From: a virus
Length of the DNA stretch: 64,000 nucleotides
Reading direction: 5' to 3' (one strand)
Virus record (IMG/VR): IMGVR_UViG_3300030616_000017
Location: 83,159 to 147,158 of that record
Shown piece after piece: positions 8,716 to 37,733 of this stretch. Both the position numbers and the translations under genes were made by a program. The notes beneath the pieces were generated by a model that made no database searches, was not told where the DNA came from, and was given only the letters and a program-made list of their open reading frames with translations. Every line of letters begins with the position of its first letter. Within the stretch, counting starts at the first letter, position 1.

Positions 8716-8820
8716 GGGGGAGAAAATGGATTCGACTGCTACACTGCTGAAGCGACGAAAGGCCCAAAGTAACGAAAGCTGAGGTGTAGCAGGACTCGGG
8801 TTCGATGCCCGACTCCTCCA
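8716..8820 (+). ncRNA. ssrA: miniature tmRNA (tRNA-like domain only)
   Basis: GGGGGAG/CTCCTCC acceptor with G3.U70 and A73; GGATTCGAC; 9-bp H2 CTGCTACAC/GTGTAGCAG; GAC; T arm TCGGG-TTCGATG-CCCGA; 39-nt interior. Confidence 0.8.
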
Positions 8821-8833
8821 AAATAAAAAATAT

Positions 8834-8923
8834 GGGCAAGTGGCGAAGCTGGTTGAAACGCATGAGACTTAAAATCTCATACCCAAGCGGTAAACATCGT
8901 GGGTTCGATCCCCACCTTGCCTA
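8834..8923 (+). tRNA. tRNA-Leu(TAA)
   Basis: Cloverleaf, loop CT-TAA-AA, long variable arm. Confidence 0.93.
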
Positions 8924-8927
8924 ATAT

Positions 8928-9001
8928 GGCACCTTAGCTCAGCTGGATAGAGCATGAGATTTCTAATCTCAGGGTCACAGGTTCGAATCCTGTAGGTGTC
9001 A
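8928..9001 (+). tRNA. tRNA-Arg(TCT)
   Basis: Cloverleaf, loop TT-TCT-AA. Confidence 0.95.
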
Positions 9002-9017
9002 TACTAATATAAAAAAT

Positions 9018-9090
9018 GGACCGTTAGCTCAGTCGGTAGAGCAACGCACTTTTAATGCGTAGGTCACAGGATCGTAGCCTGTACGGTTCA
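9018..9090 (+). tRNA. tRNA-Lys(TTT)
   Basis: Cloverleaf, loop CT-TTT-AA; atypical T loop ATCGTAG. Confidence 0.9.
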
Positions 9091-9094
9091 CTAA

Positions 9095-9166
9095 GGTTTA
9101 TTCGTATATTGGTTAGTACGCTGGATTGTCGATCCAGAAGGCGGGGTTCGATTCCCCGATAGACCG
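9095..9166 (+). tRNA. tRNA-Asp(GTC)
   Basis: Cloverleaf, loop TT-GTC-GA, G73. Confidence 0.92.
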
Positions 9167-9210
9167 TTTTTGTAAGAAATCTATATAGTTTTTTCTTACA
9201 AAATCTCTTT

Positions 9211-9284
9211 GCTCCCTTCGTCTAATCGGTTAGGATATCGCCCTTTCAAGGCGAAGATATCGGGTTCAAGTCCCGTAGGGAGTA
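9211..9284 (+). tRNA. tRNA-Glu(TTC)
   Basis: Cloverleaf, loop CT-TTC-AA. Confidence 0.93.
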
Positions 9285-9330
9285 AAACATTTTACTTTAC
9301 TTTTTGGTAGAAAATGATTATATTATATAT

Positions 9331-9565: not shown

Positions 9566-9592
9566 TTATTAACCTACCAAAAGGAGAATCAA

Positions 9593-11536
9593 ATGATTTC
9601 CACTCTACGTCTTTTTAATGGTATTATTATTCCCAACAAAGAAGTTCCTGAAGATACTAATTCAGTAATATGGCCTCATGAAAAGTCTTACGAACAGCTT
9701 ACTAAAGAAACTCTCAAGAAAGGATACATTGTTGATAAGGCTATCTATTTTAATCTTACTCCTGAAGGCTTAAAAGACTTTAACAAGGCTATGAAAGAAA
9801 AGCTTACTTTTCATCGAGATTGGAATAATAGCTTTTATAAGTCTTGGAATAAACTGGAAACTCTTTCAGATTTTGAATTGCGTTTAGACCAGCTTTTTCA
9901 TTACTTTACTACGTATGGAGCCGAAGCTCTTGGAATAAAAGATTCTTTTGTTTACCTCCCTAAAGGCAATACTTTTATGCCCCCTGTAAGTGAAGATTTT
10001 TCTTTTCTTTATATTCGTGGATTTGAAAGAGAAGAAATTCAGGAAAAGATTGTAGCTATGGTTGGTTCTGGAATTGCTCTAAAAGAAGAAACCATTGAAG
10101 ATCTTCTTACTATTGTTATGGAATTTTCAAAGAAGCACATTTTCGACATCTTCTCTGTTTGCAAGAACAAGGAAGTGAAGGTTCGATTAGCAGAGTTATA
10201 TGATTTTATTCCTAAAAATGTAGGAGAATTTCTTAGATACGTTATTTACAAGAATACAGGGAAGTCTCTTGTTATTAAGAATAAAGCTACAATTGACGCT
10301 ATAAAGATAGGGAGAGATAGAAAAACTCCTTCTTATTTCTATGCGTATAGAGATGCTTATGGGCTTGAAAGTCTTGCTAAAAACTTTTATCGGTATAAGC
10401 CTCTTCTTCTTGCTTTTCGGTCTGCATTCCCTGAACTAAAGCCACTGATTAATCAAGTAAGAAAACTTGCTGTAAAGTTCCATGAACCTATGAAAGAAGA
10501 TTTTCTTAATACTGTTACCAAAAAAATCAAACAGAATGCTGTTCTTAATCTCACCACTTTAGAACAAGAACTCTTTAAGGCAAACACCTTTAGAAAAGTA
10601 CGGTTGCTATATGCTCTTCAGAATCTGGAAAGCCAAACTGAAGATAAAATCTATAATATTCGGAACGGTAAACAGTATGTAACGAAAGCAAGTATGCCTC
10701 GATTTAAAAAAGAGGATGTTGCTTTTTTAGCTGATAAGGTCTATTCTCATATTGTTGAAGATATTAAACCAAATGTAGAAGGTAAGACAGTTTTGGTTCA
10801 TCCAAGACTTGCATATGCTCTTCCTTCTTCAGAAAAGAATTTTATAGGAAACTACCCTGTCAAGAGTAAGGTAGAATTCAACAGTACAAGAGACCTGATT
10901 ATTGGTGTTCACTGGAAAAATCAAAAAAATAGAGTAGATCTAGATCTTTCTCTTCTTAGTCTTGATGGAACCAAGTTTGGATGGAATGGTCGTTATAGGG
11001 ATGAAGGAATTCTTTTTTCAGGCGATGTGACTGATGCTCCTGGAGCAGGAGCTTCTGAGTTTTATTATTTCAAAGGTGTTAAAGACGGGATGTATTCAGT
11101 AGTTTTGAATTATTACAATTCTTATGGGGTAGAAGAAGAATGCCCTTTTGATATAATTATTGGGGCTTTTGATGGACAAGATATTAATAGGAATTTTATG
11201 TTACGCCCTGAAAATATTGTTTTTCAAGCCTCCTCATCTATCGGCCCTGAACAGATTAATCTGGGAATGGTGGTTATAGAGGGAGACAAAAAAGTATTTA
11301 GTATGATAGAGGGAAAGAGAGCTCGTGCTTCAGTGTCTGCTAACGATGAACTCAATGCTGTATATTTGAATGCACTTAAATCTGAAACTGAAAATATTAT
11401 ATTTCTAACAGATGTGCTTACTGATGCTGGAGCTGTAGTAGTAGAAGATCGAGAAGATTCAGTTATTGATTTTGATCTTACTCCTACCTATATTCAGAAA
11501 GATACCATTATGTCAATGTTTACAAAGGAGAGGTAA
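9593..11536 (+). CDS. helical (Ro/TROVE-like) + C-terminal TerD-like domain protein
   Basis: SD AAGGAG before ATG 9593; C-terminal VDLDLS..GWNGRY..FSGDVTDAP.GASEF; long helical N-terminal region. Confidence 0.6.
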   Translation: MISTLRLFNGIIIPNKEVPEDTNSVIWPHEKSYEQLTKETLKKGYIVDKAIYFNLTPEGLKDFNKAMKEKLTFHRDWNNSFYKSWNKLETLSDFELRLDQLFHYFTTYGAEALGIKDSFVYLPKGNTFMPPVSEDFSFLYIRGFEREEIQEKIVAMVGSGIALKEETIEDLLTIVMEFSKKHIFDIFSVCKNKEVKVRLAELYDFIPKNVGEFLRYVIYKNTGKSLVIKNKATIDAIKIGRDRKTPSYFYAYRDAYGLESLAKNFYRYKPLLLAFRSAFPELKPLINQVRKLAVKFHEPMKEDFLNTVTKKIKQNAVLNLTTLEQELFKANTFRKVRLLYALQNLESQTEDKIYNIRNGKQYVTKASMPRFKKEDVAFLADKVYSHIVEDIKPNVEGKTVLVHPRLAYALPSSEKNFIGNYPVKSKVEFNSTRDLIIGVHWKNQKNRVDLDLSLLSLDGTKFGWNGRYRDEGILFSGDVTDAPGAGASEFYYFKGVKDGMYSVVLNYYNSYGVEEECPFDIIIGAFDGQDINRNFMLRPENIVFQASSSIGPEQINLGMVVIEGDKKVFSMIEGKRARASVSANDELNAVYLNALKSETENIIFLTDVLTDAGAVVVEDREDSVIDFDLTPTYIQKDTIMSMFTKER

Positions 11537-11537
11537 A

Positions 11538-12650
11538 ATGAGAGACCTTGCTTATATTGCTAAAATTGAAAAGCTTGAACCCATTAAAGATAAGGATAGA
11601 ATTGAACTCGCCACAGTAGCTAATTGGGAAGTAATTGTAGGAAAAGGAGAATATAAGGTTGGAGACCTTGTGGTGTATGTTGAGTATGATACTGTTCTTC
11701 CTGTCAAGCCCGAATTCGAGTTTCTAAGAAAAAGATGTTATTCAAAACTTTATGACGGGTTTAGAATTCGTAATATGTCAATGGCTGGTGTATTTTCTCA
11801 AGGAATTGTGTTTCCTCTCTCTATTCTCCCAAAGAGTGTTAAGATTGAGGAGGGAAGAAATGTTGCTAAAGAACTAGAAATTGTTCGATATGATCCAGAA
11901 GAGATACGAGAAAATAGAATGATTCATAATTCCAAGCCTAAAAATCCTCTTATGAGATTTAAGTGGTTTAGAAAACTTCGGAATAAATATTTTGGTAAAA
12001 CTTCCTCTTATCCTTCTACAGTAAAGAAATCTGATGAAACAAATATTCAGAAGCTTTTCAACGCGTACAAAGAAAATTATAATGATGTGAAGTTTTATGC
12101 TACGGAAAAAGTAGAAGGACAAGCAGCAACCTATGTGCTTAAACGAGGTCGCTTTCACGTTTACTCCCACAATAAGAGTGTGCGGAACGATGGAAAAAAC
12201 AATTGGTCAGCAACTGCTAAACTGTATGACATTGAAAAGAAGCTGCGTCAGTATAAAAGAAAACACGGAGTAGAGCTTGCAATCCAAGGAGAAATTGCGG
12301 GGCCGGGAATTCAAAAGAATATCTATGGGTTTGATACATTTAGATTTTTCGTATATAAAATCACTAATGTGAAAACAGGTGAAGCGTACAACTTCGTGGA
12401 TTTAGTTAATCTTATTGTAAAGTTAGATCTATTTCTTTGTCCTCTTGTTTATACATCTATATATCTTAATGCGTTTGAAACCGTACAGGAAATTCTTGAG
12501 CATAGTAATGGAGATAGTGTATTAAGAAAGGATAAGAAGATTCCAAGAGAAGGGCTTGTATGGAGAGCTGTAGAAGATCAAAATATAGGGTTTAAAGCTA
12601 AGAGTCCGGTATACCTTGCAGCTTGGGATAAAAAAGATAAAACTGAATAA
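11538..12650 (+). CDS. ATP-dependent RNA ligase, DRB0094-like, N-terminal OB domain
   Basis: DRIELATV...GVFSQGIV; motif I EKVEG, QGEIAGPGIQKN, EGLV, FKAKS. Confidence 0.85.
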   Translation: MRDLAYIAKIEKLEPIKDKDRIELATVANWEVIVGKGEYKVGDLVVYVEYDTVLPVKPEFEFLRKRCYSKLYDGFRIRNMSMAGVFSQGIVFPLSILPKSVKIEEGRNVAKELEIVRYDPEEIRENRMIHNSKPKNPLMRFKWFRKLRNKYFGKTSSYPSTVKKSDETNIQKLFNAYKENYNDVKFYATEKVEGQAATYVLKRGRFHVYSHNKSVRNDGKNNWSATAKLYDIEKKLRQYKRKHGVELAIQGEIAGPGIQKNIYGFDTFRFFVYKITNVKTGEAYNFVDLVNLIVKLDLFLCPLVYTSIYLNAFETVQEILEHSNGDSVLRKDKKIPREGLVWRAVEDQNIGFKAKSPVYLAAWDKKDKTE

Positions 12651-13669: not shown

Positions 13670-13677
13670 TAGGTTTT

Positions 13678-13750
13678 TGAGGTATAGCTCAGTTGGCAGA
13701 GCGCTTGACTGTTAATCAAGATGTCGCAGGTTCAAGTCCTGCTACCTCAG
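13678..13750 (+). tRNA. tRNA-Asn(GTT)
   Basis: Cloverleaf, loop CT-GTT-AA. Confidence 0.95.
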
Positions 13751-13768
13751 ATATTTTAACAGAAAATT

Positions 13769-13859
13769 GGAAGGGTGACCGAGTCTGGCTTATGGTGATG
13801 CCCTGCTAAGGCATTGGGGGAAATAATTTCTTCTGAAGGTTCAAATCCTTCTCCTTCCG
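13769..13859 (+). tRNA. tRNA-Ser(GCT)
   Basis: Loop CT-GCT-AA, long variable arm, G73. Confidence 0.93.
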
Positions 13860-13866
13860 TTTTTAC

Positions 13867-13938
13867 GCCTCTCTAGCTCAACGGTAGAGCAACGCTCTTG
13901 TAAAGCGTAGGTTATCTGTTCGAATCAGATGAGGGGCT
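13867..13938 (+). tRNA. tRNA-Thr(TGT)
   Basis: Cloverleaf, loop CT-TGT-AA. Confidence 0.94.
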
Positions 13939-13940
13939 AT

Positions 13941-14014
13941 GTGGCTGTAGCTCAGTAGGCTAGAGCGTCTGTCTGTGGAACAGAAGGCCGAGGGTTCAAT
14001 TCTCTCCAGCCACC
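13941..14014 (+). tRNA. tRNA-His(GTG), G-1 not encoded
   Basis: Loop CT-GTG-GA, C73; position -1 is T. Confidence 0.92.
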
Positions 14015-14019
14015 TTTAT

Positions 14020-14092
14020 AGGTCTGTAATTCAATTGGCAGAATACTGGTCTCCAAATCCAAAAGTTGAGGGTTCGATTCCTTCCGGGCCTG
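14020..14092 (+). tRNA. tRNA-Trp(CCA)
   Basis: Loop CT-CCA-AA; anticodon stem has two mismatches. Confidence 0.85.
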
Positions 14093-14100
14093 TATATTAT

Positions 14101-14181
14101 AGAGTCTAGCGCTAAGGTAGCAAACTGGACTTGAAATCCAGGCCATGTGTATGCATGAGGGTTCGATTCCTTTAGGCTCTG
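14101..14181 (+). tRNA. tRNA-Ser(TGA), atypical D arm
   Basis: AGAGTCT/AGGCTCT acceptor, loop CT-TGA-AA, variable arm, G73. Confidence 0.8.
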
Positions 14182-14202
14182 TATAGTAAAAGGAGTAAAA
14201 GA

Positions 14203-14749: not shown

Positions 14750-14823
14750 GGGGTTGCATGTACCAAGGCTGGCGATTTTCCTTTGCAAGGAAGATGAGCT
14801 CGGTTCAATTCCGAGGGGCTCCA
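14750..14823 (+). tRNA. tRNA-Ala(TGC), atypical D arm
   Basis: G3.U70, A73, loop TT-TGC-AA, T arm CTCGG-TTCAATT-CCGAG. Confidence 0.8.
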
Positions 14824-14829
14824 CTTTTT

Positions 14830-14904
14830 CCCTCCATACCCAAGTTGGTTTAAGGGAACGGATTGCAAACCCGTTATTCGCAAGTTCGAATCTTGCTGGG
14901 GGGT
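14830..14904 (+). tRNA. tRNA-Cys(GCA)
   Basis: Loop TT-GCA-AA, U73. Confidence 0.88.
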
Positions 14905-14923: not shown

Positions 14924-15637
14924 ATGAGTGTATTTGTATGTGGTGATACGCATCATGATTATGACATAGAGAAATTAAGTATAGAAAGATGGCCCGAACA
15001 AGAACAACTTACACTTGATGACTTTCTTATTCAGCTTGGCGATTTTGGTGTGCCTTGGAGCAATGATAGAGAAAACCCCTCTGATTTGAGAATGTTTCAA
15101 TGGTGGGCAAGTAGACCTTGGACTACTTTAGTTATCCCAGGAAACCATGAGAATTATGATCGTCTTGCTTTATATCCGGAAATAGAGATGTTTGGAGGCC
15201 CAGTGCAAAGAATGGCCAATAATGTTTATATTCTTCAAAGAGGGTATGTATATGAAGTAGATGGTAAAAAAATATTTGCAATGAGCGGAGGGTTTTCAAT
15301 CGATAAGGATTGGAGAACAGAGTTTGTTAGTTGGTGGAGTCAAGAAATGCCAACATATCAGGAAATTCTTGATGCAAGAAAAAGATTAGAAGAAGCAGGT
15401 TGTGATGTTGATTATGTTCTTACTCACACCTGCTCTAATATTACATTTGAAAAACTTTTTCTTCAGATTGATCTTATGCCTGAAAAAAATAAAAGAAATC
15501 CTCTAAGGCATTTTCTCGATTGGGTAGAAGAAAATGTAAAGTTTAAGGAATGGCATTTTGGTCATTTCCATGACGATGTACAGGTAGATGAAAAGCATTT
15601 TCTTCATTACAATAAACCGCCTGTACGGTTAATATAA
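14924..15637 (+). CDS. calcineurin-like metallophosphoesterase
   Basis: GDTH, GDFG, GNHE, THT, GHFH. Confidence 0.9.
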   Translation: MSVFVCGDTHHDYDIEKLSIERWPEQEQLTLDDFLIQLGDFGVPWSNDRENPSDLRMFQWWASRPWTTLVIPGNHENYDRLALYPEIEMFGGPVQRMANNVYILQRGYVYEVDGKKIFAMSGGFSIDKDWRTEFVSWWSQEMPTYQEILDARKRLEEAGCDVDYVLTHTCSNITFEKLFLQIDLMPEKNKRNPLRHFLDWVEENVKFKEWHFGHFHDDVQVDEKHFLHYNKPPVRLI

Positions 15638-15646
15638 AAAGTATAT

Positions 15647-15720
15647 GCCCCGGTAGACCAATTGGAAGAGTTAGCAGATTTAGAATCTGTACAGTGTGAG
15701 TTCAAATCTCACTCGGGGCA
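15647..15720 (+). tRNA. tRNA-Leu(TAG) with short variable loop
   Basis: Loop TT-TAG-AA, 5-nt variable region, A73. Confidence 0.88.
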
Positions 15721-15752
15721 ATATCTGAAAAATAAAGGAGAAAAAAAAATAA

Positions 15753-16352: not shown

Positions 16353-16359
16353 TATAAAT

Positions 16360-16444
16360 AGCGGGGTAGAGTAGAGGTCAAACTCGGTGGTCTCATAAGC
16401 CACTGCACGAAAGTGCTCGTTGGGTTCAATTCCCACCCCCGTTA
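16360..16444 (+). tRNA. tRNA(CAT), initiator-like with long variable arm
   Basis: AGCGGGG/CCCCGTT, loop CT-CAT-AA, extra arm GCAC-GAAA-GTGC. Confidence 0.85.
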
Positions 16445-16461
16445 TACCTTTTTATATCAAT

Positions 16462-16536
16462 GCGCCTGTGGTGTTTAACGGATTAGCATGACAGCCTTCC
16501 AAGCTGACGGTACGGGTTCGAATCCCGTCAGGCGCT
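16462..16536 (+). tRNA. tRNA-Gly(TCC)
   Basis: Cloverleaf, loop CT-TCC-AA, U73. Confidence 0.94.
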
Positions 16537-16545
16537 CTTATAATA

Positions 16546-16636
16546 AGGAGATGATCTTCACGGGGGACTGTAAATCCCTTCTGCGTTAACAATTGTGAAG
16601 TGGCTGCAGGGTTGGGTTCGATTCCCTCATCTCCCA
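16546..16636 (+). tRNA. D-armless tRNA-Tyr(GTA)-like
   Basis: GGAGATGA/TCATCTCC acceptor, loop CT-GTA-AA, T loop TTCGATT, no D hairpin, long variable arm. Confidence 0.7.
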
Positions 16637-16747
16637 TTTTTTTTGAAAAAGTTTAATTTTTACTTGAATTTTAGAAAAAACTTCGTTATATTATAAATAT
16701 GAATAAGATAATAAGAGGGAGTAAGGAATCGGTTAACTTAAACATTT

Positions 16748-16818
16748 AGGGGTATCGTCTAACGGTAAGACGCAGGGTTTTGGTCCCTGAGATAGGAGTT
16801 CGATTCTTCTTACCCCTA
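16748..16818 (+). tRNA. tRNA-Gln(TTG)
   Basis: Cloverleaf, loop TT-TTG-GT. Confidence 0.92.
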
Positions 16819-16824
16819 TACTAT

Positions 16825-16898
16825 CTAGATGTGGTGTTTAACGGTAGCACGCCTGGTTTGGGACCAGGATGGTGGAGGTTCAAATCCTTCCATCTAGA
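16825..16898 (+). tRNA. tRNA-Pro(TGG)
   Basis: C1-G72, A73, loop TT-TGG-GA. Confidence 0.93.
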
Positions 16899-16926
16899 CT
16901 TTTTAAAAAACTTAAAGGAGCTTAAA

Positions 16927-17834: not shown

Positions 17835-19868
17835 ATGCAATTCAAATCTTTATATCTTAAAAATTATGGTATTTTTAAAGAAACCACGTTTAATTTCAAA
17901 GAGGGCTTCAATGTGCTGTCCGGGGAAAATGGACAAGGAAAGTCGCACGTGCTGAGAGCCATCAACTATTTACTTCTTAATAAAACTTTTGGAAAAATAG
18001 AGGAAGACTGCAACTGGGGAGCAGACTCTTTTGATATTAAGTTAGAGTTTGAACACAATGGTCAGACATTTATCGCTCACAATACTTTTGATAGAAAAAA
18101 AGGTGTTTCAAAAGAACTTTGGATTGATAAAGAATATTACTCAGGCAATAAAGATGTTACAGAAGTCCTTTCTCTTTATTTCGAGCCCTCTCTTACTTCA
18201 GCCGCTATGATAGCGCTGCAAGGAGATATGGATGTAGTAACATCGGGTTCAGCTAAAAGACGAGACAACTTGAAAAAAATCTATGATTTAGATTTTACCA
18301 AACAAATTAATTATGTTAAAGAAGAGAAAGAGGTGAAGGACAAAGAGATCCAAGAAATTGATAAAAAGATTTATCACTTGGAGCAAAAAGAGTACAAAAA
18401 AGAGAGGCCTCAAAAGCTTCCTTTTTCCGAAGATGATAAGAGAGGCAAGAAAGAAGAAATAGAGAGAATTCAACAAACCGTTCGTCAACAAGAAACCATC
18501 CTAAATGCTAAACAAGAAAAAGAAAACTTAATTGATACTCTAGGCGAAAAAATTACAAACAAGCAAGCTAAGCTTTCTCAAATGGAAAGGGAAAGAGGGG
18601 AGCTGCAGAGTAAAGCCTCAGAGGATTCAGAGACTCTTATAAATCTTCGCGAAGCTCGAGAAGGAGAACTGCAAAGTACTAAAGAAGATCTTGATAAAAT
18701 TGTTATAGAGCGTGTTAAAGCCTTTGACGACCAGATTTTGGAAAAAGCTTATAAAGAGTATTTAGATACACAAAACGAACTCAAACAAGCAAGAGAGCAC
18801 CTCAGCTTAGTGAAGCAAGGCCAATGCCCCGTTTGTAAGAGAGCTTTCGATAGCGGAGAAGAGAGTACATATACTCAGAAAATAGAAGAGTTGGAGAAGG
18901 AAGAGCAAAAGCGTTTCAAGCATTACACAGAACTTAGCGAGGAAAAGAAAAAGCTAGATAAGCTGAGGGAAGAACAAAAACAAAAACTAAACGAAAAAAC
19001 AAGATTAGAGACCCAACTTTCTCATTTAGGAGAAGTATACCAAAGCAAAATAGAGAATGCTCTCAATGTACAGAAACAACATATTGAACAAAAAGTTTCT
19101 TTACACAAGGCTATAAAAGAGTCTCTTAAAGAATTGGTGGATTTAGAAAAACAGAAAAAAGAAGCGAAAGATTCTCTTGAGGCGCTAGAAAAAGAAATAA
19201 AAGATTTCGATATTGATTTTCTCACTTCTATGAAGAAAGAGCTTGAAGAAGAAATAGCAGAATACGATAGAGTGGTCTCCACCAACGAAATAATTGTAAA
19301 GAATAACCAAAAGGTAGAGGAAGAAAAACAAGAAGATGCGAAAGAGATGGGGCAACTAAAGAAACAAAGGGAAAGTGCTGTAAGGCAAAGTTCTATTTGT
19401 ACAACAGAAATAGACATTCTTAAAAAGACCTTTCCTAATTTTGTCATCTCCACTCTTGTACATTCGATTGAAAGTGGAATGAATGAGTTGTTAGATAAGG
19501 CGTATGCAGGAAGATACCACTGCAGTATTAAAGAATCGAGAAGTGGCCTAGACGTTGTGTATGCTGACAAAGAGGTAGATATTAAGCTCTCCTCTGGCGC
19601 TGAGCAGAATCTTTTTAATCTTGGATTTAAAAACGCTTTTACTAAAATAGCAGGGTTAAAACTTCTTGTGCTGGATGAAGCTCTTAACTTTGCTAATGAC
19701 ACTATTGCTAAAAACGTATTTCATGCTATCAAAGATATGATAGATGAAGGAACAATCGAGCAAGTGCTTCTTATTACTCATAAAGATGAGGTTAAAGATA
19801 TGCTTGCAAGTGATTATAGTTCTCGTACCTTTACAATCAAGGAGGGCGAAATTGAACGAACAGAATAA
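17835..19868 (+). CDS. sbcC: SbcC/Rad50-like SMC ATPase
   Basis: GENGQGKS, coiled coil with CPVC zinc hook, SSGAE signature, VLDE Walker B, ITH. Confidence 0.9.
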   Translation: MQFKSLYLKNYGIFKETTFNFKEGFNVLSGENGQGKSHVLRAINYLLLNKTFGKIEEDCNWGADSFDIKLEFEHNGQTFIAHNTFDRKKGVSKELWIDKEYYSGNKDVTEVLSLYFEPSLTSAAMIALQGDMDVVTSGSAKRRDNLKKIYDLDFTKQINYVKEEKEVKDKEIQEIDKKIYHLEQKEYKKERPQKLPFSEDDKRGKKEEIERIQQTVRQQETILNAKQEKENLIDTLGEKITNKQAKLSQMERERGELQSKASEDSETLINLREAREGELQSTKEDLDKIVIERVKAFDDQILEKAYKEYLDTQNELKQAREHLSLVKQGQCPVCKRAFDSGEESTYTQKIEELEKEEQKRFKHYTELSEEKKKLDKLREEQKQKLNEKTRLETQLSHLGEVYQSKIENALNVQKQHIEQKVSLHKAIKESLKELVDLEKQKKEAKDSLEALEKEIKDFDIDFLTSMKKELEEEIAEYDRVVSTNEIIVKNNQKVEEEKQEDAKEMGQLKKQRESAVRQSSICTTEIDILKKTFPNFVISTLVHSIESGMNELLDKAYAGRYHCSIKESRSGLDVVYADKEVDIKLSSGAEQNLFNLGFKNAFTKIAGLKLLVLDEALNFANDTIAKNVFHAIKDMIDEGTIEQVLLITHKDEVKDMLASDYSSRTFTIKEGEIERTE

Positions 19869-20295: not shown

Positions 20296-20814
20296 ATGAA
20301 AAGATTCTGGAGTTATTTCAAGTATGTAGCAAGACACAAATGGTTTGTAATGCAGGAGTGTTTTAAGCAGGGTCTTTTTTGGAGGGGGCTTGTTCATGAT
20401 ATGAGTAAGTTTCTTCCTTCTGAGTGGAAGCCTTACTCACATTTTTTCTATAATCGAGACGGCAGTAAGAGGCAAGTTAGAGGTACAACAGGTTATTATA
20501 AGCCCACTGATACAGGAGATGAAGCTTTTGATTTTGCATGGCTATTACATCAGAAAAGAAATAAGCATCATTGGCAATGGTGGATTCTTCCTGAAGATGA
20601 AGGTAAGGTAAAAATACTTCCTATGCCTGTACAGTATTGGTTGGAAATGATTTGTGATTGGGTAGGAGCGGGAAAAGCTCAAGGGTTTGTATCTCCGAAG
20701 GATGACCCCTATTTAGAGACTAGAAAATGGTATGGGGTAAATAAAAACAAAATGCAACTACACCCTAGTACTCGCACCGCTGTGGAGAAGTATATAAGGT
20801 ATACAGGAGATTAA
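20296..20814 (+). CDS. DUF5662-like HD-domain protein
   Basis: RHKWFV, HDMSKF, H..RNKHHW, EMICDW. Confidence 0.75.
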   Translation: MKRFWSYFKYVARHKWFVMQECFKQGLFWRGLVHDMSKFLPSEWKPYSHFFYNRDGSKRQVRGTTGYYKPTDTGDEAFDFAWLLHQKRNKHHWQWWILPEDEGKVKILPMPVQYWLEMICDWVGAGKAQGFVSPKDDPYLETRKWYGVNKNKMQLHPSTRTAVEKYIRYTGD

Positions 20815-23735: not shown

Positions 23736-23739
23736 CACA

Positions 23740-24879
23740 ATGAAAGAGTTGTCATTACAAAGATTTTTAAAATCCTATAATACTGTTTTTCATAATGAGA
23801 AGTGGATAGATACCCTCACTAAAGATCCTTACAATATTAAAGTAATGGGTAAAGGTGAACGAGTACTATTTAAGTACAATCAGATAGCCAGCGATTTTAA
23901 TAAAACCCTTGTGCAGGAGTGTAGAGGGATTATTCTTTGGAAGGATAATTGGGATAAAATTGTATGCCACCCTCTTCATAAGTTCTTCAACTATGGAGAA
24001 CAGAATGCAGCAGAGCTGGATTGGGAAAGTACTGTAGTTCTTGAAAAAATGGATGGCTCCCTAATTAAGGTCTACTGGTGGGATGGAGAATGGAGAGTAG
24101 CTACTAATGGGACTATTGAAGCTTGTGACGCGGAGTTGCAGTTCCCTGCAGAAAGTAAAGGATTATATACATTTGATGACCTCTTTCATTATACATTGAG
24201 TGAATACACCGCTGACTCTGAAGGGGATTTCTTCTCTCAGCTTGATAAAGAATATACATATTTGTTTGAACTTTGCACACCATATAACCGTGTGGTTGTT
24301 CCTCATACGGAGTGCAAGCTGTATTATATTACAGCTAAAAAGAATGATGCGGAAGGAGAGGAAATAAGAGAGAATCATACTATTGTTGATACTATTCGTG
24401 AATATAAAATGAATAGTTATGATGATGCGATTAAGATGGCTCAACTTCTTCCGTATGATAATGAGGGATATGTCTTGGTAGATAAATACAATAATAGAGT
24501 GAAAGTGAAAAGCCCAGCATATCTTGCTGTACATCGATTAAAAGGTGAAGACGTCCCCTCTAAAAGAAAAATATTTGATCTTATTCTTATGGGAGAGGAA
24601 GGAGAATTCCTTTCCTACTTTCCTGAATATACCGAAGAATTTGAAAGAATAAAAAAAGGCTGGGAGATTATTCAAGAAAAGGTGCGTATGGATATTAAGT
24701 TTCTTGCTATGGGAACAGAGTTTAATACACGAAAAGAGTTTGCAATGGTAGCTAAAGAAGCTGTTTTTCCCGGATTAATGTTTCAGCTTTATGATGGTAA
24801 AGAAATCACTATCACTGAATATGTTCAGAATATGAGTCAAAAAAGTAAGGATACTCTTCTTAAAGATATGGAGGATTAA
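23740..24879 (+). CDS. T4 Rnl1-like RNA ligase
   Basis: ECRG, KFFN.GE, motif I EKMDGS, FEL, EGYV, RVKVKS. Confidence 0.9.
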   Translation: MKELSLQRFLKSYNTVFHNEKWIDTLTKDPYNIKVMGKGERVLFKYNQIASDFNKTLVQECRGIILWKDNWDKIVCHPLHKFFNYGEQNAAELDWESTVVLEKMDGSLIKVYWWDGEWRVATNGTIEACDAELQFPAESKGLYTFDDLFHYTLSEYTADSEGDFFSQLDKEYTYLFELCTPYNRVVVPHTECKLYYITAKKNDAEGEEIRENHTIVDTIREYKMNSYDDAIKMAQLLPYDNEGYVLVDKYNNRVKVKSPAYLAVHRLKGEDVPSKRKIFDLILMGEEGEFLSYFPEYTEEFERIKKGWEIIQEKVRMDIKFLAMGTEFNTRKEFAMVAKEAVFPGLMFQLYDGKEITITEYVQNMSQKSKDTLLKDMED

Positions 24880-27257: not shown

Positions 27258-28148
27258 ATGAAGAATCAAAGAATAATTTTTCTAAAAGGACTTCCCGCTT
27301 CTGGGAAGTCCACTAGAGCCAGATATATGGTAACAGAAGGTAAAGGCGATTATGTCCGTGTAAACAAGGATGATCTTCGTCTCATGCTTTTTGATAAGCA
27401 TTGGAGCTCTAGTAGAGAGAAACTCGTAGTGAAAGTTCGTGATCAGATTGTAAGGGAAATTCTTGAAAGCGGAAGAACCCCCATTGTTGATGATACCAAC
27501 TATGCACCTAAGCATTATAATACTATCAAAGCAATTGCGAACGCATATGGGGTTGAAGTTGTAGTAGTGGAAATGGAGACCTCTATTGCGGAATGCATAG
27601 AAAGAAATCGTAATCGTCCTATCTCTGAAAGAGTTCCTGAGCATGTTATTTGGGATATGTATGAAAAATATATTCTTCCTAGAAAGCAGCAAGAGCTTAT
27701 TTTTGCTAAACTTCTTCCTAAAGCTATTATGGTGGATGTAGATGGTACTCTTGCTCTTCATGAAGAGAGATCTCCTTTTAACTATCATGAGTGTCTCGAT
27801 GATACTTTGAATGAACCAATTGCAGAGCTTGTACGAGAATATGCCCTTACTCATAGGGTATTAATTGTAACAGGCAGAGAGAATATGAAGTATGGGGATA
27901 AAGAGTTTAGCTCTGTTTTAGAATTCACAAAGGAATGGCTTGATAGAAATGGTGTGCCTTATGATGCAGTTTTCATTCGAGAAGAAGGTGATCATCGAAA
28001 AGATTATCTAGTGAAGAAAGAACTTTGGGACAGATATATCAAAGGACAGTATAACGTGAAGTTTGTTCTAGATGATCGTAAACAGGTAATAGATATGTGG
28101 CGCGAAGAGGGGCTTACTGTTCTTGATGTAGCGGGGCATACCTTTTAG
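27258..28148 (+). CDS. pseT: polynucleotide 5'-kinase/3'-phosphatase (Pnkp)
   Basis: GLPASGKST P-loop, DDTN; HAD DVDGTL, TGR, LDDR. Confidence 0.93.
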   Translation: MKNQRIIFLKGLPASGKSTRARYMVTEGKGDYVRVNKDDLRLMLFDKHWSSSREKLVVKVRDQIVREILESGRTPIVDDTNYAPKHYNTIKAIANAYGVEVVVVEMETSIAECIERNRNRPISERVPEHVIWDMYEKYILPRKQQELIFAKLLPKAIMVDVDGTLALHEERSPFNYHECLDDTLNEPIAELVREYALTHRVLIVTGRENMKYGDKEFSSVLEFTKEWLDRNGVPYDAVFIREEGDHRKDYLVKKELWDRYIKGQYNVKFVLDDRKQVIDMWREEGLTVLDVAGHTF

Positions 28149-29996: not shown

Positions 29997-31001
29997 ATGA
30001 AAATGCTTGAGAAAACAATGAAACAGATTCTTACTAAGAAAATTAAAGCTTGGAAAGCAACGATTGAGGACACAGAAATTCAAAGGATCATAGATAAAGA
30101 TCTTATTGTAACTGGTGGTTGTTTTACTTCTATGATTCTTAATGAAGCCCCAAAGGATTATGATTGTTATTTTCGTACTAAAGAAAGTGTTCTTAAAGTG
30201 GCTAATTACTATGTAGATAAATGGAATGAAGAACATGGGAAAAAGAAAAACGGAGCGGGATATCATTCTAAAGTATTTGTGGTAGATGGAGACAATCCTT
30301 CTCAAGAGGTTCTTGAATATTTTCATGTTGAAGATCCTAATGAATCACGAGCAGTAATGATGAGTAATATCCAGAAAGGAAGAGTCAAGATCATTTATCC
30401 ATCAGATGGAGTAGTGGGCGATCCTGAGGAAATTCATGCAAGTGAAGAGCTTGGAACCGCAGTAGAAAATATTGGAGAAATTGATGAAGTAAAAGCAGAT
30501 GAAATTCTGGAAAAAGAAAAGAAAGAATATTTTCCTGTTTTTATCTCTTCTAATGCAATAACCCTTTCTAATGGAGTTCAGATTGTAGTACGCTTCTATG
30601 GTGAGCCAAGTGATATTCATGATACATATGATTTTGAACATACTAAAGCATACTACGATAACAAGGCTAAAGAAGTTGTAATTCCTAAAGAAGTTTATGA
30701 GATGGTTATTAATAAGACCCTCCGTTATTCAGGAAGCAGATATCCTGTATGTAGTCTTTTTAGATTAAGAAAGTTTATCAATCGAGGGTGGAAGATAAAC
30801 GCTGGTCAAATCCTCAAAATAGCTATGCAAGTGTCTGAACTTAATCTTATGGATATCAATGTTTTGGAAGATCAGCTTATCGGAGTAGATAGCCTTTACT
30901 TTATGAATCTTATTCATCAGTTCCGCAAACAGAAAGAAAAGAGTCCTGATTTTGAACTAACACCGAACTACATTATTTCTATTATTGATAAAATATTTTA
31001 A
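29997..31001 (+). CDS. Pol-beta-superfamily nucleotidyltransferase-like protein
   Basis: VTGGCF..M....PKDYDCYF (GG + DxD), YDF, RLRKF..RGW. Confidence 0.6.
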   Translation: MKMLEKTMKQILTKKIKAWKATIEDTEIQRIIDKDLIVTGGCFTSMILNEAPKDYDCYFRTKESVLKVANYYVDKWNEEHGKKKNGAGYHSKVFVVDGDNPSQEVLEYFHVEDPNESRAVMMSNIQKGRVKIIYPSDGVVGDPEEIHASEELGTAVENIGEIDEVKADEILEKEKKEYFPVFISSNAITLSNGVQIVVRFYGEPSDIHDTYDFEHTKAYYDNKAKEVVIPKEVYEMVINKTLRYSGSRYPVCSLFRLRKFINRGWKINAGQILKIAMQVSELNLMDINVLEDQLIGVDSLYFMNLIHQFRKQKEKSPDFELTPNYIISIIDKIF

Positions 31002-31010: not shown

Positions 31011-31544
31011 ATGCCAGAAAACCATATAATGGTAGACCTTGAAACAATGAACTCCACTCCCGATTCTGCTATCACTTCAATAGGGGCTGTAAAGTTTAAT
31101 CTCGATAAGGGGCTTATTACTGATGATTTTTATGTAAGAGTTAAGCTTCAATCTTGTCTTGATGTTGGTTTAACTATAGGAGCCGACACTATTCAATGGT
31201 GGCTAAAACAAAGTGAAGAAGCGAGAATGGAAATAGCCAAGCCAGGAGATTATCGAATTGAAGAAGCTTTAGAACAACTTAAAAAGTGGATGGGAGATTA
31301 TCCTGTTGTTTGGGGCAATGGGGCTGCATTTGATAATGTTATTCTTAAAAATGCATATAAGGCCGTAGGAGAAGAAGCTCCGTGGCCCTATTGGAATGAT
31401 AGATGTTTTAGAACATTAAAAGCTCTGTTGCCTAAAATAAAGTTTGAAAGAAAAGGAGCCCATATAGCAGTTGAAGATGCCCGTTATCAGGCTATTTATC
31501 TTATGAAAGCATTGGGAGTATACGGTGGCGAAGAAAAAAACTAA
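31011..31544 (+). CDS. DEDDh 3'-5' exonuclease
   Basis: DLET, GNG..FD, RCFRT, H.A.EDA.YQ. Confidence 0.88.
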   Translation: MPENHIMVDLETMNSTPDSAITSIGAVKFNLDKGLITDDFYVRVKLQSCLDVGLTIGADTIQWWLKQSEEARMEIAKPGDYRIEEALEQLKKWMGDYPVVWGNGAAFDNVILKNAYKAVGEEAPWPYWNDRCFRTLKALLPKIKFERKGAHIAVEDARYQAIYLMKALGVYGGEEKN

Positions 31545-33798: not shown

Positions 33799-33826
33799 AA
33801 CCCCTCTTTTTGAGGGGTTTTTATTT
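33799..33826 (+). terminator. intrinsic terminator
   Basis: AACCCCTC-TTTTT-GAGGGGTT + T run. Confidence 0.8.
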
Positions 33827-33878
33827 ACAAATACAAAGAAAGTTGTTATATTATAAATAGAGACATAAACATAGGAAG

Positions 33879-35189: not shown

Positions 35190-35206
35190 GAAGGAGAAAA
35201 CAAAGT

Positions 35207-35434
35207 ATGTCCGGAGAAAAGGTTTTTGATAAACGAGAAATCGATAGAATGCATAAAGGGGAGTTGTATCGAGAAAGAAGCTCAACTGAGCGCCAGATCA
35301 GAACACAAATTCAACATCTTGAACGGCTTGGGCCTACAGACAAATACCATGATATTAGAAGACAGCATCTCCGTGTATTATACGAAAAGAGATCTTATAT
35401 AGAGAAGAGAATCAAAGAACTAAATAAAGGATAA
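35207..35434 (+). CDS. hypothetical protein
   Basis: ORF with SD. Confidence 0.6.
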   Translation: MSGEKVFDKREIDRMHKGELYRERSSTERQIRTQIQHLERLGPTDKYHDIRRQHLRVLYEKRSYIEKRIKELNKG

Positions 35435-35437
35435 AAA

Positions 35438-35860
35438 ATGCCTACTCAAATTAAAATTGATCATAACTCATACTTTAATGGGTTAGCAGATGAGAAACTT
35501 GTGGTGTTATTATCTCGCTACGTGACTACATCTTCTCCTCAAGATGTTACACAGGAATTTATAAGAGAAGAACTAGGATCTATTTCTGAAGCTTTTGTAT
35601 ACAAAATGCTTCTTTCATATAAAGAAAACTTAATTAGAGAAGCAGCCAAAAGATGGTATGCTAAAGAGAAAAAGAATAATCAGCAATATATCTTACAATG
35701 CTTAACTTGTAAGCACATTGAGTTGGTTACAAAAGAAGAAAAAGATAAATTAGAAAAGGCTTTTTCAGTTTGTGGAGCCTATTGGTGGCGTTGCCCCGTA
35801 TGTGGTGTTAATCACTATTTAAAAGATATTTTGGTAAATGCCAAAATAAAAGGAGAATAA
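35438..35860 (+). CDS. Zn-ribbon hypothetical protein
   Basis: CLTC...CPVC. Confidence 0.6.
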   Translation: MPTQIKIDHNSYFNGLADEKLVVLLSRYVTTSSPQDVTQEFIREELGSISEAFVYKMLLSYKENLIREAAKRWYAKEKKNNQQYILQCLTCKHIELVTKEEKDKLEKAFSVCGAYWWRCPVCGVNHYLKDILVNAKIKGE

Positions 35861-35862
35861 AT

Positions 35863-36051
35863 ATGAAAGGCTATAGAATAAGAAGAATCTATTTTCATGT
35901 CACTCCGTGGACGGATTGGTTTATAATTCCAACACTTCGAGTTTATCGCGCTAGTGTAGAGAAGAGTTCTTTAGTGGCTTATGTAGAAGTGGGTGTAATG
36001 TTTTTGAAATGGGAAGTTGTATGTACTTATTATCCTGGTAGAAAGGTATAA
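35863..36051 (+). CDS. hypothetical protein
   Basis: ORF with SD. Confidence 0.55.
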   Translation: MKGYRIRRIYFHVTPWTDWFIIPTLRVYRASVEKSSLVAYVEVGVMFLKWEVVCTYYPGRKV

Positions 36052-36054
36052 AAA

Positions 36055-36891
36055 ATGATAGACCCTAAAAGCTATCAACTATTAAGAAGCGAAGAAGAAC
36101 TGGAATGGTTCTATGAAAATGTAATGCCTCCTTTGAATAATCATGAGGTGTATTTTCTCTCTCTTAGTGCAAGAAAAAAACTTCTCACCGATTTTGAAAA
36201 GCAAACAATTCAGCTTGGTAGAACAGAAATGTTTGAAAGAAGAATTGTAAGAACAAAAGAATGGAATCGGCTGTATAGAACCGTTCGAAAGTTTGAAGCG
36301 AATTGGGGAGCATATACAAGTAAAAGAGGTTCTAATATTCCTAATCATGCAATAGTGGTGTATGTTAATATTAATCCTTCTGATGTTCTTAAAGCATATA
36401 AAGAGTTTAACCAAACTATGAATGAATATATGTATGAGCTGGTTCAATGTGCTGCAGAAAAGAGAAGTACAGACAATATTCTTTATCGTATCAAAAAACA
36501 AGATACACTTCTTATGAATTGCTATCAGAAGAATAGGGGAACAAAACATTGGATGGATTTTGATTTCGATATTCCTAGAAGCCCAAAAATTCTTTCTATT
36601 TTATACTTGTTCGTTGAAGAGATTAAAGAACATAAAGGAAAAGCATATATTGTAGAGACACAAGGAGGATACCATATCTTAGTAAGTATGGATACTGAAT
36701 TTAATCAGCAGTTTAACCCTCCTGTTTTAACTAAAAAATATGGAGAGGCCATTGCAAGATACATATCTCAAGGAGCTTGTGCAAAGATAGAAAACTTAGG
36801 GTATGAAGTAATTCATAATAAGAATGCTATGATCCCTCTTCCAGGAACTGTGCATAATGGTACGTTAGTAAAAATTCTAAATAAGGAGTAA
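36055..36891 (+). CDS. AEP (primase-polymerase) superfamily-like protein
   Basis: WMDFDFD (DxD), ETQGGYH, IPLPGT. Confidence 0.55.
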   Translation: MIDPKSYQLLRSEEELEWFYENVMPPLNNHEVYFLSLSARKKLLTDFEKQTIQLGRTEMFERRIVRTKEWNRLYRTVRKFEANWGAYTSKRGSNIPNHAIVVYVNINPSDVLKAYKEFNQTMNEYMYELVQCAAEKRSTDNILYRIKKQDTLLMNCYQKNRGTKHWMDFDFDIPRSPKILSILYLFVEEIKEHKGKAYIVETQGGYHILVSMDTEFNQQFNPPVLTKKYGEAIARYISQGACAKIENLGYEVIHNKNAMIPLPGTVHNGTLVKILNKE

Positions 36892-36895
36892 TAAG

Positions 36896-37138
36896 ATGGA
36901 TGTGGATGTAACAGTTACTATCAACATTAGGGGCATGAAGATCGAACTTGATCTAAACGAAGTAGATGAACTTCGTCTTAAACTAGAGGAAATAGGTAAT
37001 AGGTTCGGAGGGCCAAGGCAAATTGAGTATATTCCAATTGCTCCGCATACTCCCCCTATAGATCCTCCTTGGGTAAATCCTTGGACTAATCCTACCATCA
37101 CCTATTCTGTTGGAACAAGGAGTAAAGCAAATGATTAG
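36896..37138 (+). CDS. hypothetical protein
   Basis: ORF with SD. Confidence 0.55.
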   Translation: MDVDVTVTINIRGMKIELDLNEVDELRLKLEEIGNRFGGPRQIEYIPIAPHTPPIDPPWVNPWTNPTITYSVGTRSKAND

Positions 37139-37733
37139 GCAATGGTTCACCTCTGATTGGCACCTGAGACATCAGAATATGGCTAAACTAAGAGGCTTTG
37201 AAAGTGTAGAAAAAATGGATACACTTATTTATAATCATCTTATAGAAAAAGTTCAAAAGCATGATGAGCTGTATGTGCTAGGTGATCTGGGATGGGAAGT
37301 TCCGGTTGTAGAGGAAATTCTTAAACTGCTCAAGCAAATGAAAGTTAAAGTTTATTGGGTTACAGGAAACCACGACAAGCGTCTGCCTCTTACTAAACTT
37401 GCTCCTTACTGTGTGGAGATTCAACAAACGCGAATAGTTAGGAATGTAGATGGTAATGGTCGCAAGTTTTTTCTTTCACATTATCCTCACGTTGTGTTTG
37501 AGAATTCTTTTCGAGATTCTATCAATCTTTACGGGCATGTTCATAAAAGCAGTAAAGAGTTTTTAGAAGTTGAAGATATGATGAGAGGACAAGCCCTAAA
37601 TGTTAACGTAGAGTTGCATGATTATTATCCTCTCTCAAAAGAAGAAATTCTTGAAAAAGTTTCAAAGAAAGAACACAATTGGGACTATGTTGTTTTCCAA
37701 AGAGAAATAGAAAGGGAGAAAAATAATGTATGA
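37131..37733 (+). CDS. calcineurin-like metallophosphoesterase
   Basis: SDWH, LGD, GNHD, SHYP, GHVH. Confidence 0.9.
   Translation: MIRQWFTSDWHLRHQNMAKLRGFESVEKMDTLIYNHLIEKVQKHDELYVLGDLGWEVPVVEEILKLLKQMKVKVYWVTGNHDKRLPLTKLAPYCVEIQQTRIVRNVDGNGRKFFLSHYPHVVFENSFRDSINLYGHVHKSSKEFLEVEDMMRGQALNVNVELHDYYPLSKEEILEKVSKKEHNWDYVVFQREIEREKNNV

Follow-up and report, generated by a model that had tools for sequence, protein, structure and literature searches.

The locus analyzed here raises the question of whether a collection of tRNA genes and RNA repair enzymes, dispersed over 29 kb of the plus strand of a phage genome, forms one integrated defense of translation or whether its parts serve separate functions. 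It lies in the last 64 kb, here referred to as the window, of the 147,158-bp record of an uncultured phage (IMG/VR record IMGVR_UViG_3300030616_000017). The window has a G+C content of 34 to 42%, and nearly all of its genes as far as ~53 kb are on the plus strand. They include a transfer-messenger RNA (tmRNA) reduced to its tRNA-like domain (TLD), referred to as the mini-tmRNA, an array of tRNAs, two RNA ligases (Rnl1 and Rnl5 types), a bifunctional 5'-kinase/3'-phosphatase (Pnkp), two metallophosphoesterases (MPE1 and MPE2), a Pol-beta-superfamily nucleotidyltransferase, and a DEDDh exonuclease. The original prediction, made from the sequence, was that these parts make up one system that heals, seals, rebuilds, and replaces tRNAs under attack by several host ribotoxins. 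Our analysis indicates that the region is probably an early/middle accessory arm of the phage, with four known and loosely linked functions, and not one machine. The presence of the parts, their families, their catalytic motifs, and the conservation of a core in one distant relative were observed directly, and it is from these that we infer all substrates and in vivo roles.

The T4-type heal-and-seal pair (Table 1) is present, as had been predicted, with intact catalytic motifs. Both catalytic motifs of Pnkp are present, with the P-loop GLPASGKST at residues 11 to 19 and the phosphatase motif DVDGT at residue 160, and the protein matches T4 Pnk (1ltq) and Capnocytophaga Pnkp1 (4xrp) equally, with an E value of 1.7e-36. 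Motif I of Rnl1 is KMDG at K110 and is aligned to KEDG of T4 Rnl1 in an alignment that spans residues 41 to 322, with the C-terminal 60 residues outside it; in Rnl1, specificity for the tRNA anticodon loop is conferred by a C-terminal domain. The second ligase belongs to a different family: it has a PHA02142/PF21189 OB domain (residues 28 to 118; 1e-27) and a PF09414 domain (residues 209 to 374; 1.9e-16), matches Naegleria Rnl5 (NgrRnl, 5cot) at an E value of 1.9e-23, and carries KVEG as motif I, with K215. Among deposited phage records, 2,507 contain Pnkp and 1,637 contain Rnl1.

Table 1. Features of the window, in order of position, with the basis of each assignment
Feature	Coordinates	Strand	Basis
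TLD-only mini-tmRNA	8716..8820 (105 nt)	+	Rfam RF00023, 59.9 bits (gathering score, 47)
tRNA cluster 1: Leu(UAA), Arg(UCU), Lys(UUU), Asp(GUC), Glu(UUC)	8833..9285	+	ARAGORN, Rfam
TerD-like protein, 650 aa	9539..11536	+	Helical N-terminal part, TerD-like beta-sandwich C-terminal domain
Rnl5-type RNA ligase (Naegleria/Deinococcus-like)	11466..12650	+	PF21189, PF09414, phrog_968, PDB 5cot
tRNA cluster 2: Asn, Ser(GCU), Thr, His, Trp, Ser(UGA)	13677..14182	+	ARAGORN, Rfam
tRNA cluster 3: Ala(UGC), Cys(GCA)	14750..14904	+	Promoter-like site ahead at 14560
MPE1, metallophosphoesterase	14924..15637	+	PF00149; motifs DTH, GD, GNHE, GH
tRNA-Leu(UAG)	15646..15721	+	ARAGORN, Rfam
tRNA cluster 4: CAU tRNA, Gly(UCC), doubtful element (16547-16634), Gln(UUG), Pro(UGG)	16359..16899	+	
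Rad50/SbcC-like ATPase	17835..19868	+	AAA_23, AAA_15; NCBIfam Rad50, 3e-23
DUF5662 protein	20296..20814	+	PF18907, 1.7e-41
Rnl1-type (T4 gp63-like) RNA ligase	23719..24879	+	PF09511, 3e-17; phrog_562; PDB 2c5u, E 9e-15
Pnkp, bifunctional 5'-kinase/3'-phosphatase	27258..28148	+	HAD_PNKP PF25109, 2.4e-44; AAA_33, 1e-20
Pol-beta-superfamily nucleotidyltransferase (tagged PF26128)	29997..31001	+	GG...DxD motif, predicted fold
DEDDh 3'-5' exonuclease, Rv2179c-like	31011..31544	+	PF16473, 1.6e-52; phrog_255
AEP-like (primase-polymerase-like) protein	36055..36891	+	Language-model/structure lead (Atlas) to PF24387
MPE2, metallophosphoesterase (aq_1665/YfcE-like)	37110..37733	+	PF00149, PF12850; PDB 1xm7, E 7.6e-15

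To place the pair in context, we compared 80 IMG/VR loci encoding Rnl1 with, as a control, 80 IMG/VR loci encoding the nucleotidyltransferase, taken from a family of >1,300 proteins. Within 10 kb, Pnkp was found in 22 of the 80 Rnl1 loci, often only 3 to 6 nt away, versus 1/80 nucleotidyltransferase loci (Fisher P = 1e-6); one or more tRNAs were present in 23 (10 of them with at least five) versus 5 (P = 3e-4), and an MPE2-like gene was found in 12 versus 2 (P = 0.009), with the qualification that the compared loci are kin, so that these P values are rough and overstate independence. Rnl1 loci are thus enriched for Pnkp and tRNAs, in line with the known association of the three, and the counts suggest that MPE2 is an accessory to it. 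They lend little support to the exonuclease and the nucleotidyltransferase as regular members: over the same distance, the exonuclease occurs in 4/80 nucleotidyltransferase loci and in none of the 80 Rnl1 loci, Rnl1 occurs in 2/80 nucleotidyltransferase loci, and the nucleotidyltransferase occurs in 6/80 Rnl1 loci, from ~4 lineages. Rnl5 was present in 6/80 loci of either set, and RecA was present in 11 nucleotidyltransferase loci and 1 Rnl1 locus.

The arrangement of the genes bears directly on whether the parts belong together. A promoter-like sequence, TTGAAA-N17-TATATT, is present at 9 sites, compared with 1.6 expected, and none of 100 shuffled sequences reached 9. Such sites precede the mini-tmRNA (8678), the Ala/Cys tRNA cluster (14560), the Gln/Pro tRNAs, which begin a cluster at 16747, and a STAS gene, among others, and strong terminator-like hairpins are located at 17743 and 33799. 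The mini-tmRNA is the first RNA of a promoter-headed tRNA operon that it shares with tRNA cluster 1. Genes without any evident connection to RNA repair are interleaved with the listed parts, and these encode SLT and M23 cell-wall enzymes, STAS and DnaJ-domain proteins, a dNMP kinase, the Rad50/SbcC-like ATPase, a YAcAr SLOG protein, and a DUF4406 protein. We reject a single operon or system on the basis of this promoter and terminator layout, the unrelated genes in between, and the lack of conservation of several parts, as described below.

A megablast search of the region against 50,697 deposited phages revealed no close relative, and a search for relatives in IMG/VR via Rnl1 alone found none. 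Among the 80 nucleotidyltransferase loci, however, one phage, G001 (146,575 bp), and only this one, has many genes in common with the window phage; its locus is L001, and L001 coordinates given here refer to the G001 stretch. Proteins common to the two phages are 35 to 47% identical, except for the nucleotidyltransferase (L001 10001-10999), which is 68% identical. The core that is kept at ~40% identity consists of the mini-tmRNA, the tRNA array (24 tRNAs in G001), Pnkp, the nucleotidyltransferase, Rnl1, Rnl5, and MPE2, and G001 also retains the TerD-like protein, MPE1, and the AEP-like gene. In G001, MPE1 adjoins a Rad50-like gene, which is followed by a dNMP kinase gene and then by those for ThyX, a lipase, and a YhhQ-type transporter, the last three being further unrelated genes interleaved with the parts. 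Next in the row are Pnkp and the nucleotidyltransferase, which abut, a single 173-amino-acid (173-aa) open reading frame (ORF), Rnl1, and the AEP-like gene and then MPE2, with Rnl5 further along. Searches of G001 for the DEDDh exonuclease, for the DUF5662 protein, and for a 436-aa ORF of the window gave no match for any of the three.

With these data, the proposal that all of the listed parts constitute one co-evolved, multilayer arsenal against several host toxins can be weighed. In such an arsenal, Pnkp, the two metallophosphoesterases, and an HD-like protein would heal, Rnl1 and Rnl5 would seal, the exonuclease and the nucleotidyltransferase would trim and rebuild, the tRNAs would replace, and the mini-tmRNA would rescue. 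The location of every part on one strand within 29 kb is consistent with this, as are the spacing of 9 nt between the nucleotidyltransferase and exonuclease genes, the near contiguity of Pnkp, the nucleotidyltransferase, and Rnl1 in G001, the abutment of Rnl1 and the nucleotidyltransferase (69 nt) in an unrelated contig (L024/L172), and the retention of the core in G001. Toxins that attack tRNA 3' ends exist, and hence a trim-and-rebuild role is conceivable. However, the exonuclease, the DUF5662 protein, and the 436-aa ORF have no counterpart in G001, the exonuclease is absent from the Rnl1 loci, the nucleotidyltransferase has no conserved neighbor, MPE1 is found in G001 as the neighbor of the Rad50-like ATPase, an inhibitory action is reported for TLD-only tmRNAs, and both phages have unrelated genes between the parts, which in the window are further divided by promoter- and terminator-like sites. 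We consider a single arsenal of this kind quite improbable. The original prediction was right in spirit for the Pnkp/Rnl1/tRNA core but over-inclusive for the rest: MPE1 probably acts on DNA, the exonuclease and the DUF5662 protein are not conserved in G001, no constant association of the nucleotidyltransferase family with tRNAs or repair genes emerges from 80 loci, a translation-protecting mini-tmRNA is at odds with the reported inhibition, and of the several host ribotoxins proposed as targets, none can be named from the sequence.

In the reading that we prefer, that of a loosely linked accessory arm, the tRNA set would be transcribed from its own sigma-70-like promoter-like sites, would decode ~58 to 75% of the phage codons, and might either replace host tRNAs that have been depleted or cut or supply the AT-rich codon usage of the phage. 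An anticodon nuclease would leave 2',3'-cyclic-phosphate and 5'-OH ends; Pnkp would strip the 3' phosphate and phosphorylate the 5' end, and Rnl1 would then reseal the loop. The Rnl5-type ligase would seal nicks in duplex regions of RNA, and the opening or removal of 3' phosphates may be aided by MPE2. The mini-tmRNA, which lacks a tag frame, would most likely bind host SmpB, AlaRS, and EF-Tu and damp or divert host trans-translation. The nucleotidyltransferase may add 3' nucleotides to RNA, for example, to the CCA-less tRNAs of the phage. Finally, MPE1 with the Rad50-like ATPase, the AEP-like protein, the dNMP kinase, and the cell-wall enzymes would have DNA, nucleotide, or lysis functions.

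The tRNA set is broad. ARAGORN identified 18 tRNAs for 16 amino acids, grouped into five clusters that span 8833 to 16899, with no further tRNA in the rest of the genome, and 16 of the 18 score above the Rfam gathering threshold. tRNA-Ser(UGA), at 28 bits, is just under this cutoff, and the assignment of tRNA-Ala(UGC) is based on ARAGORN together with a G3:U70 acceptor stem read from the sequence. No encoded CCA was found 3' of any of the tRNAs or of the mini-tmRNA, and Ile, Val, and Phe tRNAs were not found either, both as predicted; Tyr also lacks a firm tRNA. The predicted total of 19 tRNAs for 17 amino acids is thus reduced by one, since the element at 16547-16634 was not accepted as a 19th tRNA (Tyr). 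Its acceptor stem is good, and a 7-nt loop displays GUA, but it has no D arm, a T stem of only 3 bp, a fold z-score of -0.9, which is no better than that of shuffled sequences, and as its only Rfam match a 22.8-bit Sec-like hit. It may be a degenerate tRNA-Tyr or another tRNA-like RNA.

Two side observations concern unusual tRNAs. The CAU tRNA that would be labeled tRNA-Met (16359-16445) is 87 nt long, has a long variable arm and a z-score of -3.2, and is atypical for Met or Ile2 tRNAs. In addition, G001 carries a tRNA with the anticodon CUA, an amber suppressor (L001 868-940), which has no equivalent in the window, and the Rnl1-bearing contigs L112 and L176 each carry two CUA tRNAs that adjoin full-length tmRNAs. 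These tRNAs hint at stop-codon recoding in the three phages.

Apart from the anticodons CAU and CCA, all anticodons of the window tRNAs begin with U or G, and each codon box is served by a single tRNA, a pattern that fits the predicted role of replacing host tRNAs. Across 52 genes, the set reads 58% of codons under strict wobble rules and 74.7% if four-way reading by U34 is allowed, and the codons left unread are mainly those for Ile, Val, Phe, and Tyr. The same data bear on the explanation that no counter-defense is involved, so that the tRNAs merely match AT-rich codons and the enzymes serve DNA ends, recombination, and RNA turnover or the processing of the phage's own tRNA precursors. A or T occupies 69% of third codon positions, and a set built from U34, G34, or a unique C34 is a minimal decoding set. 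Furthermore, RecA, RNR, the dNMP kinase, the Rad50-like ATPase, and the AEP-like protein are all encoded in the region, and the only PDB relatives of the exonuclease are exodeoxyribonucleases, which match it weakly (E value of 0.002). T4 Pnkp acts on DNA ends too. Against this explanation, Pnkp and Rnl1 colocalize far above chance, the T4 Rnl1/Pnkp pair acts on broken tRNA, and Rnl5 seals 3'-OH RNA strands. Phage tRNAs have, moreover, been reported to evade tRNA-targeting defenses (PMC10264068). On balance, we regard a region devoid of any counter-defense role as unlikely.

The mini-tmRNA of the original prediction is present. Its Rfam alignment matches both ends of the model with ~270 model positions deleted, and the RNA has the expected TLD features, namely, an acceptor stem with G3:U70, A73, a stemless D-loop analogue (GGAUUCGAC), helix 2, and the T arm, with a fold z-score of -3.7. 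The mRNA-like domain and the pseudoknots are absent and are replaced by ~37 nt inside helix 2. ARAGORN found no tag, and neither a reading frame nor a resume codon is conserved among the inserts of the homologues. The G001 mini-tmRNA (130 nt, 44.9 bits) keeps G3:U70 and shows compensatory changes in the acceptor stem. Besides G001, a scan of IMG/VR with a specific pattern revealed six more TLD-only genes (L299, L301, L303, L307, L308, and L310), and a covariance model of eight sequences found a ninth member, L143. The family thus comprises RNAs of 66 to 130 nt in at least nine metagenomic phage contigs. G3:U70 and A73 are invariant across the eight sequences, and compensatory changes affect three acceptor positions and 6 of 7 helix-2 pairs, with the T arm covarying as well. 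In large phages, mini-tmRNAs stand first in tRNA arrays and in some cases have a TerD-like gene as a neighbor. No similarity to the mini-tmRNA was detectable by blastn in the collection of known phages, including DS6A, the mycobacteriophage for which a TLD-only tmRNA is listed (tmRNA Website; PMC4131195, PMC11915505).

The L143 gene (16078-16143) deserves separate mention, as this 66-nt "micro" TLD-only tmRNA is the smallest family member seen here; besides its G3:U70-bearing acceptor stem and its T arm, it has only a single short hairpin. It is located 5 kb from Rnl1 on a 159-kb phage contig. In the window itself, 368 nt without an ORF (33511-33878) are found between a promoter-like site at 33446 and a strong bidirectional terminator-like hairpin at 33799-33819; a weak tmRNA/tRNA-like Rfam match of 17.7 bits covers 33600-33665, and a search of G001 for a DNA match to the 368 nt was negative.

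As to its function, the mini-tmRNA more likely inhibits or diverts host trans-translation than rescues ribosomes. We favor inhibition because TLD-only molecules have been reported to be inhibitory, because there is no tag frame, and because neither SmpB nor Pth genes were found across the phage genome. The lack of a phage SmpB gene is also the reason to expect that the mini-tmRNA would use host SmpB. The alternative is a true rescue factor, which would be charged with alanine, take over the stalled peptide, and free ribosomes stuck on cut tRNA or mRNA without adding a degradation tag. The invariance of G3:U70 and A73 speaks for such a factor, as do the covarying helices (helix 2, T arm, and acceptor stem) and the position at the head of a promoter-led tRNA operon; in phages L112, L115, and L176, it is full-length tagged tmRNAs that are found in this place, next to tRNA arrays and Rnl1. 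However, the insert has no conserved frame or resume codon, the genome provides neither SmpB nor a Pth that could release the peptidyl-RNA, and a TLD-like molecule was reported to strongly inhibit tmRNA in E. coli, perhaps by titration of SmpB (Mao et al. 2009, PMC4131195). We therefore consider a rescue role unlikely.

The Pol-beta nucleotidyltransferase had likewise been predicted correctly, as judged by its motif and predicted fold. A search of the Pfam and PHROG libraries gave no functional match. G40, G41, D54, and D56 of the GG...DxD motif are invariant among 30 sequences of the family, whose members are 60 to 74% identical. An AlphaFold model built on the family alignment has a pLDDT of 76, and its best PDB matches, which the predicted head and neck resemble with modest scores, are without exception class II enzymes that add CCA or A, bacterial poly(A) polymerase, and TENT5. 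Two specific identities were rejected: the protein is not RlaP, since neither it nor a six-frame scan of the genome gave a PF10127 match, and it is not a canonical CCA enzyme, since PF01743 is matched neither by the protein nor elsewhere in the genome. The protein can fairly be described as a Pol-beta nucleotidyltransferase of the type that adds to RNA 3' ends, and the label CCA-adding enzyme is not established. It is of note that identities of 60 to 74% are maintained over hundreds of metagenomic contigs with unrelated neighborhoods, which is unusual for a phage accessory gene.

The enzyme might mature the CCA-less phage tRNAs or restore 3' ends damaged by toxins, working here beside Pnkp and Rnl1. 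Taking the two least familiar families together, the PF26128 nucleotidyltransferase could be an uncharacterized RNA 3'-end adder and the TLD-only mini-tmRNAs a dedicated weapon against trans-translation or SmpB-dependent defense; we put forward this combined proposal tentatively and consider it rather unlikely.

Several points, in addition to the kinship of the compared loci, weigh against our reading of the region as an accessory arm with these functions. The comparison rests on one genuine relative genome, and the tRNA set fits plain codon supply equally well. For the closest phage relatives of MPE1, the annotation goes no further than generic phosphoesterase, and in Streptomyces phage Wakanda (Stanwilliamsviridae, MT024865), the relative is not beside an SbcC gene. 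The fold match of the nucleotidyltransferase is middling (Foldseek E value of 4.5e-4, TM score of 0.3 to 0.38, VIA Z of 9.4), and a sequence check for the RR dipeptide (RRD) and [ED]DxxR found neither; RRD and EDxxR are the nucleotide-selection motifs of class II CCA enzymes. Clustering of ORFs within 4 kb at 77 loci identified no conserved neighbor of the nucleotidyltransferase, the best family being present in 8/77, tRNAs lie within 10 kb in only 5 of its 80 loci, and the gene adjoins RecA more often than repair genes. Because there is no constant neighbor, tRNAs are rare, and RecA is commoner, a role of this enzyme in tRNA 3'-end work is weakly grounded.

The remaining proteins are more readily assigned to other functions. 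Both predicted metallophosphoesterases exist. MPE1 probably works with the Rad50-like ATPase and on DNA, given its adjacency to the Rad50/SbcC-like gene in G001; however, it has only 237 aa and no match to an SbcD or Mre11 profile, and in the window phage it is 2.2 kb from the ATPase gene. The Rad50/SbcC-like ATPase itself belongs to DNA repair or recombination and lies outside RNA repair. In MPE2, as in MPE1, all of the calcineurin-type motifs checked (D-x-H, GD, GNH[DE], and GH) are present, and the protein is an unproven candidate for an enzyme that heals 2',3'-cyclic or 3'-phosphate ends. The "HD-like" protein of the original prediction is probably the DUF5662 protein, which contains an HD dipeptide; its only match is to the DUF5662 family, and a search for a PDB relative found none. 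The exonuclease was correctly recognized and has DLE at residue 9, H-x4-D at residue 151, and an RNase_T match of 1.3e-6, the motif check having covered DLE and H-x4-D. The AEP-like assignment stands as a language-model and structure lead, with a PF24387 cluster score of 0.95, TM scores of 0.56/0.73, and DFD and T-x-H motifs, and does not extend to a Pfam family match; the G001 homologue (L001 12825-13646) is 45% identical and adjoins Rnl1. The 436-aa ORF (33879-35189) had no Pfam, PHROG, or PDB match and gave a poor Atlas model.

The TerD-like protein, which follows tRNA cluster 1, had no Pfam or PHROG match, and its AF2 model (pLDDT of 83) matched TerD (3ibz) in Foldseek with a probability of 1.0. 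Members of its family are strikingly frequent in phage tRNA arrays: in a set of 80 TerD-like loci (L311 to L390), 16 have at least five tRNAs within 6 kb, and one locus has 32. The gene is near a mini-tmRNA in three contigs (G000, G001, and L301). As a partner of the mini-tmRNA in general it was rejected, as the covariance model found a mini-tmRNA in only 1/80 of these loci (G001). Between tRNA-Glu and the TerD-like gene (9296-9540), three similar stem-loops share a GTTCCT-type motif. Just upstream of the mini-tmRNA, a full-length xanthine/uracil permease is encoded (7458-8669; PF00860, E value of 2e-75), in place of which G001 has a YhhQ/Vut_1-type transporter (L001 8377-8997). It is unusual for a phage to carry transporters of nucleobases or precursors.

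Taken whole, the package opens no new question, and its value is that of a well-preserved, nonjumbo example of spare tRNAs combined with heal-and-seal RNA repair enzymes. It singles out three families: the PF26128 nucleotidyltransferase, the aq_1665-like phosphoesterase that recurs near Rnl1, and the TLD-only mini-tmRNAs. The first and the last of these most deserve bench work. If the mini-tmRNA turned out to inhibit ribosome rescue in the host, or the nucleotidyltransferase to work on tRNA 3' ends, either result would add to the known means by which phages control host translation.

Among the closest known systems is the repair of PrrC-cleaved tRNA-Lys by T4 Pnkp (pseT) and Rnl1 (gp63): the same two families are present here with intact motifs, but the window enzymes are ~25 to 37% identical to those of T4, their genes are 2.4 kb apart, and an Rnl5-type ligase is added. 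This ligase shares the OB plus nucleotidyltransferase domain plan of the Rnl5 ligases of Naegleria gruberi (NgrRnl) and Deinococcus (DraRnl), with a direct match to 5cot, but its motif I is KVEG and not KxDG. The DS6A TLD-only tmRNA is likewise phage borne, is hardly more than a tRNA-like domain, and has no tag frame, whereas the window mini-tmRNA retains helix 2 and the ~37-nt insert. RlaP (PF10127), also a Pol-beta nucleotidyltransferase beside RNA ligases, has been reported to extend damaged 3' ends of RNA by one or two nucleotides (PMC12776372). The family described here has Pnkp and Rnl1 as neighbors in G001 and directly adjoins Rnl1 in L024; it differs from RlaP in giving no PF10127 signal, in having a predicted fold nearest to class II CCA/poly(A) enzymes and TENT5, and in a linkage to ligases that is sporadic (6/80 Rnl1 loci). 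In Wakanda, tRNAs are similarly dispersed among small ORFs on one strand, together with a phosphoesterase related to MPE1, a pair of RNA ligases, and a Pnkp with 39% identity to that of the window, but the lineage and host are different, and in the stretch compared, no PF26128 nucleotidyltransferase or mini-tmRNA is annotated. Lastly, Iyer et al. described a jumbo-phage counter-defense repertoire of tRNA provisioning, Rnl1/Rnl2/RtcB ligases, PNK-HAD, phosphoesterases, RlaP, and CCA enzymes (2021, PMC7824862), in which tmRNA is not mentioned. The concept is the same as that proposed here, and the parts list, which includes Pol-beta nucleotidyltransferases that restore RNA ends, is nearly the same, although the window phage, at 147 kb, is below the jumbo range and its nucleotidyltransferase is neither PF10127 nor PF01743. 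Taken together, this makes the package a rich but ordinary case of published phage counter-defense and not a new integrated system.

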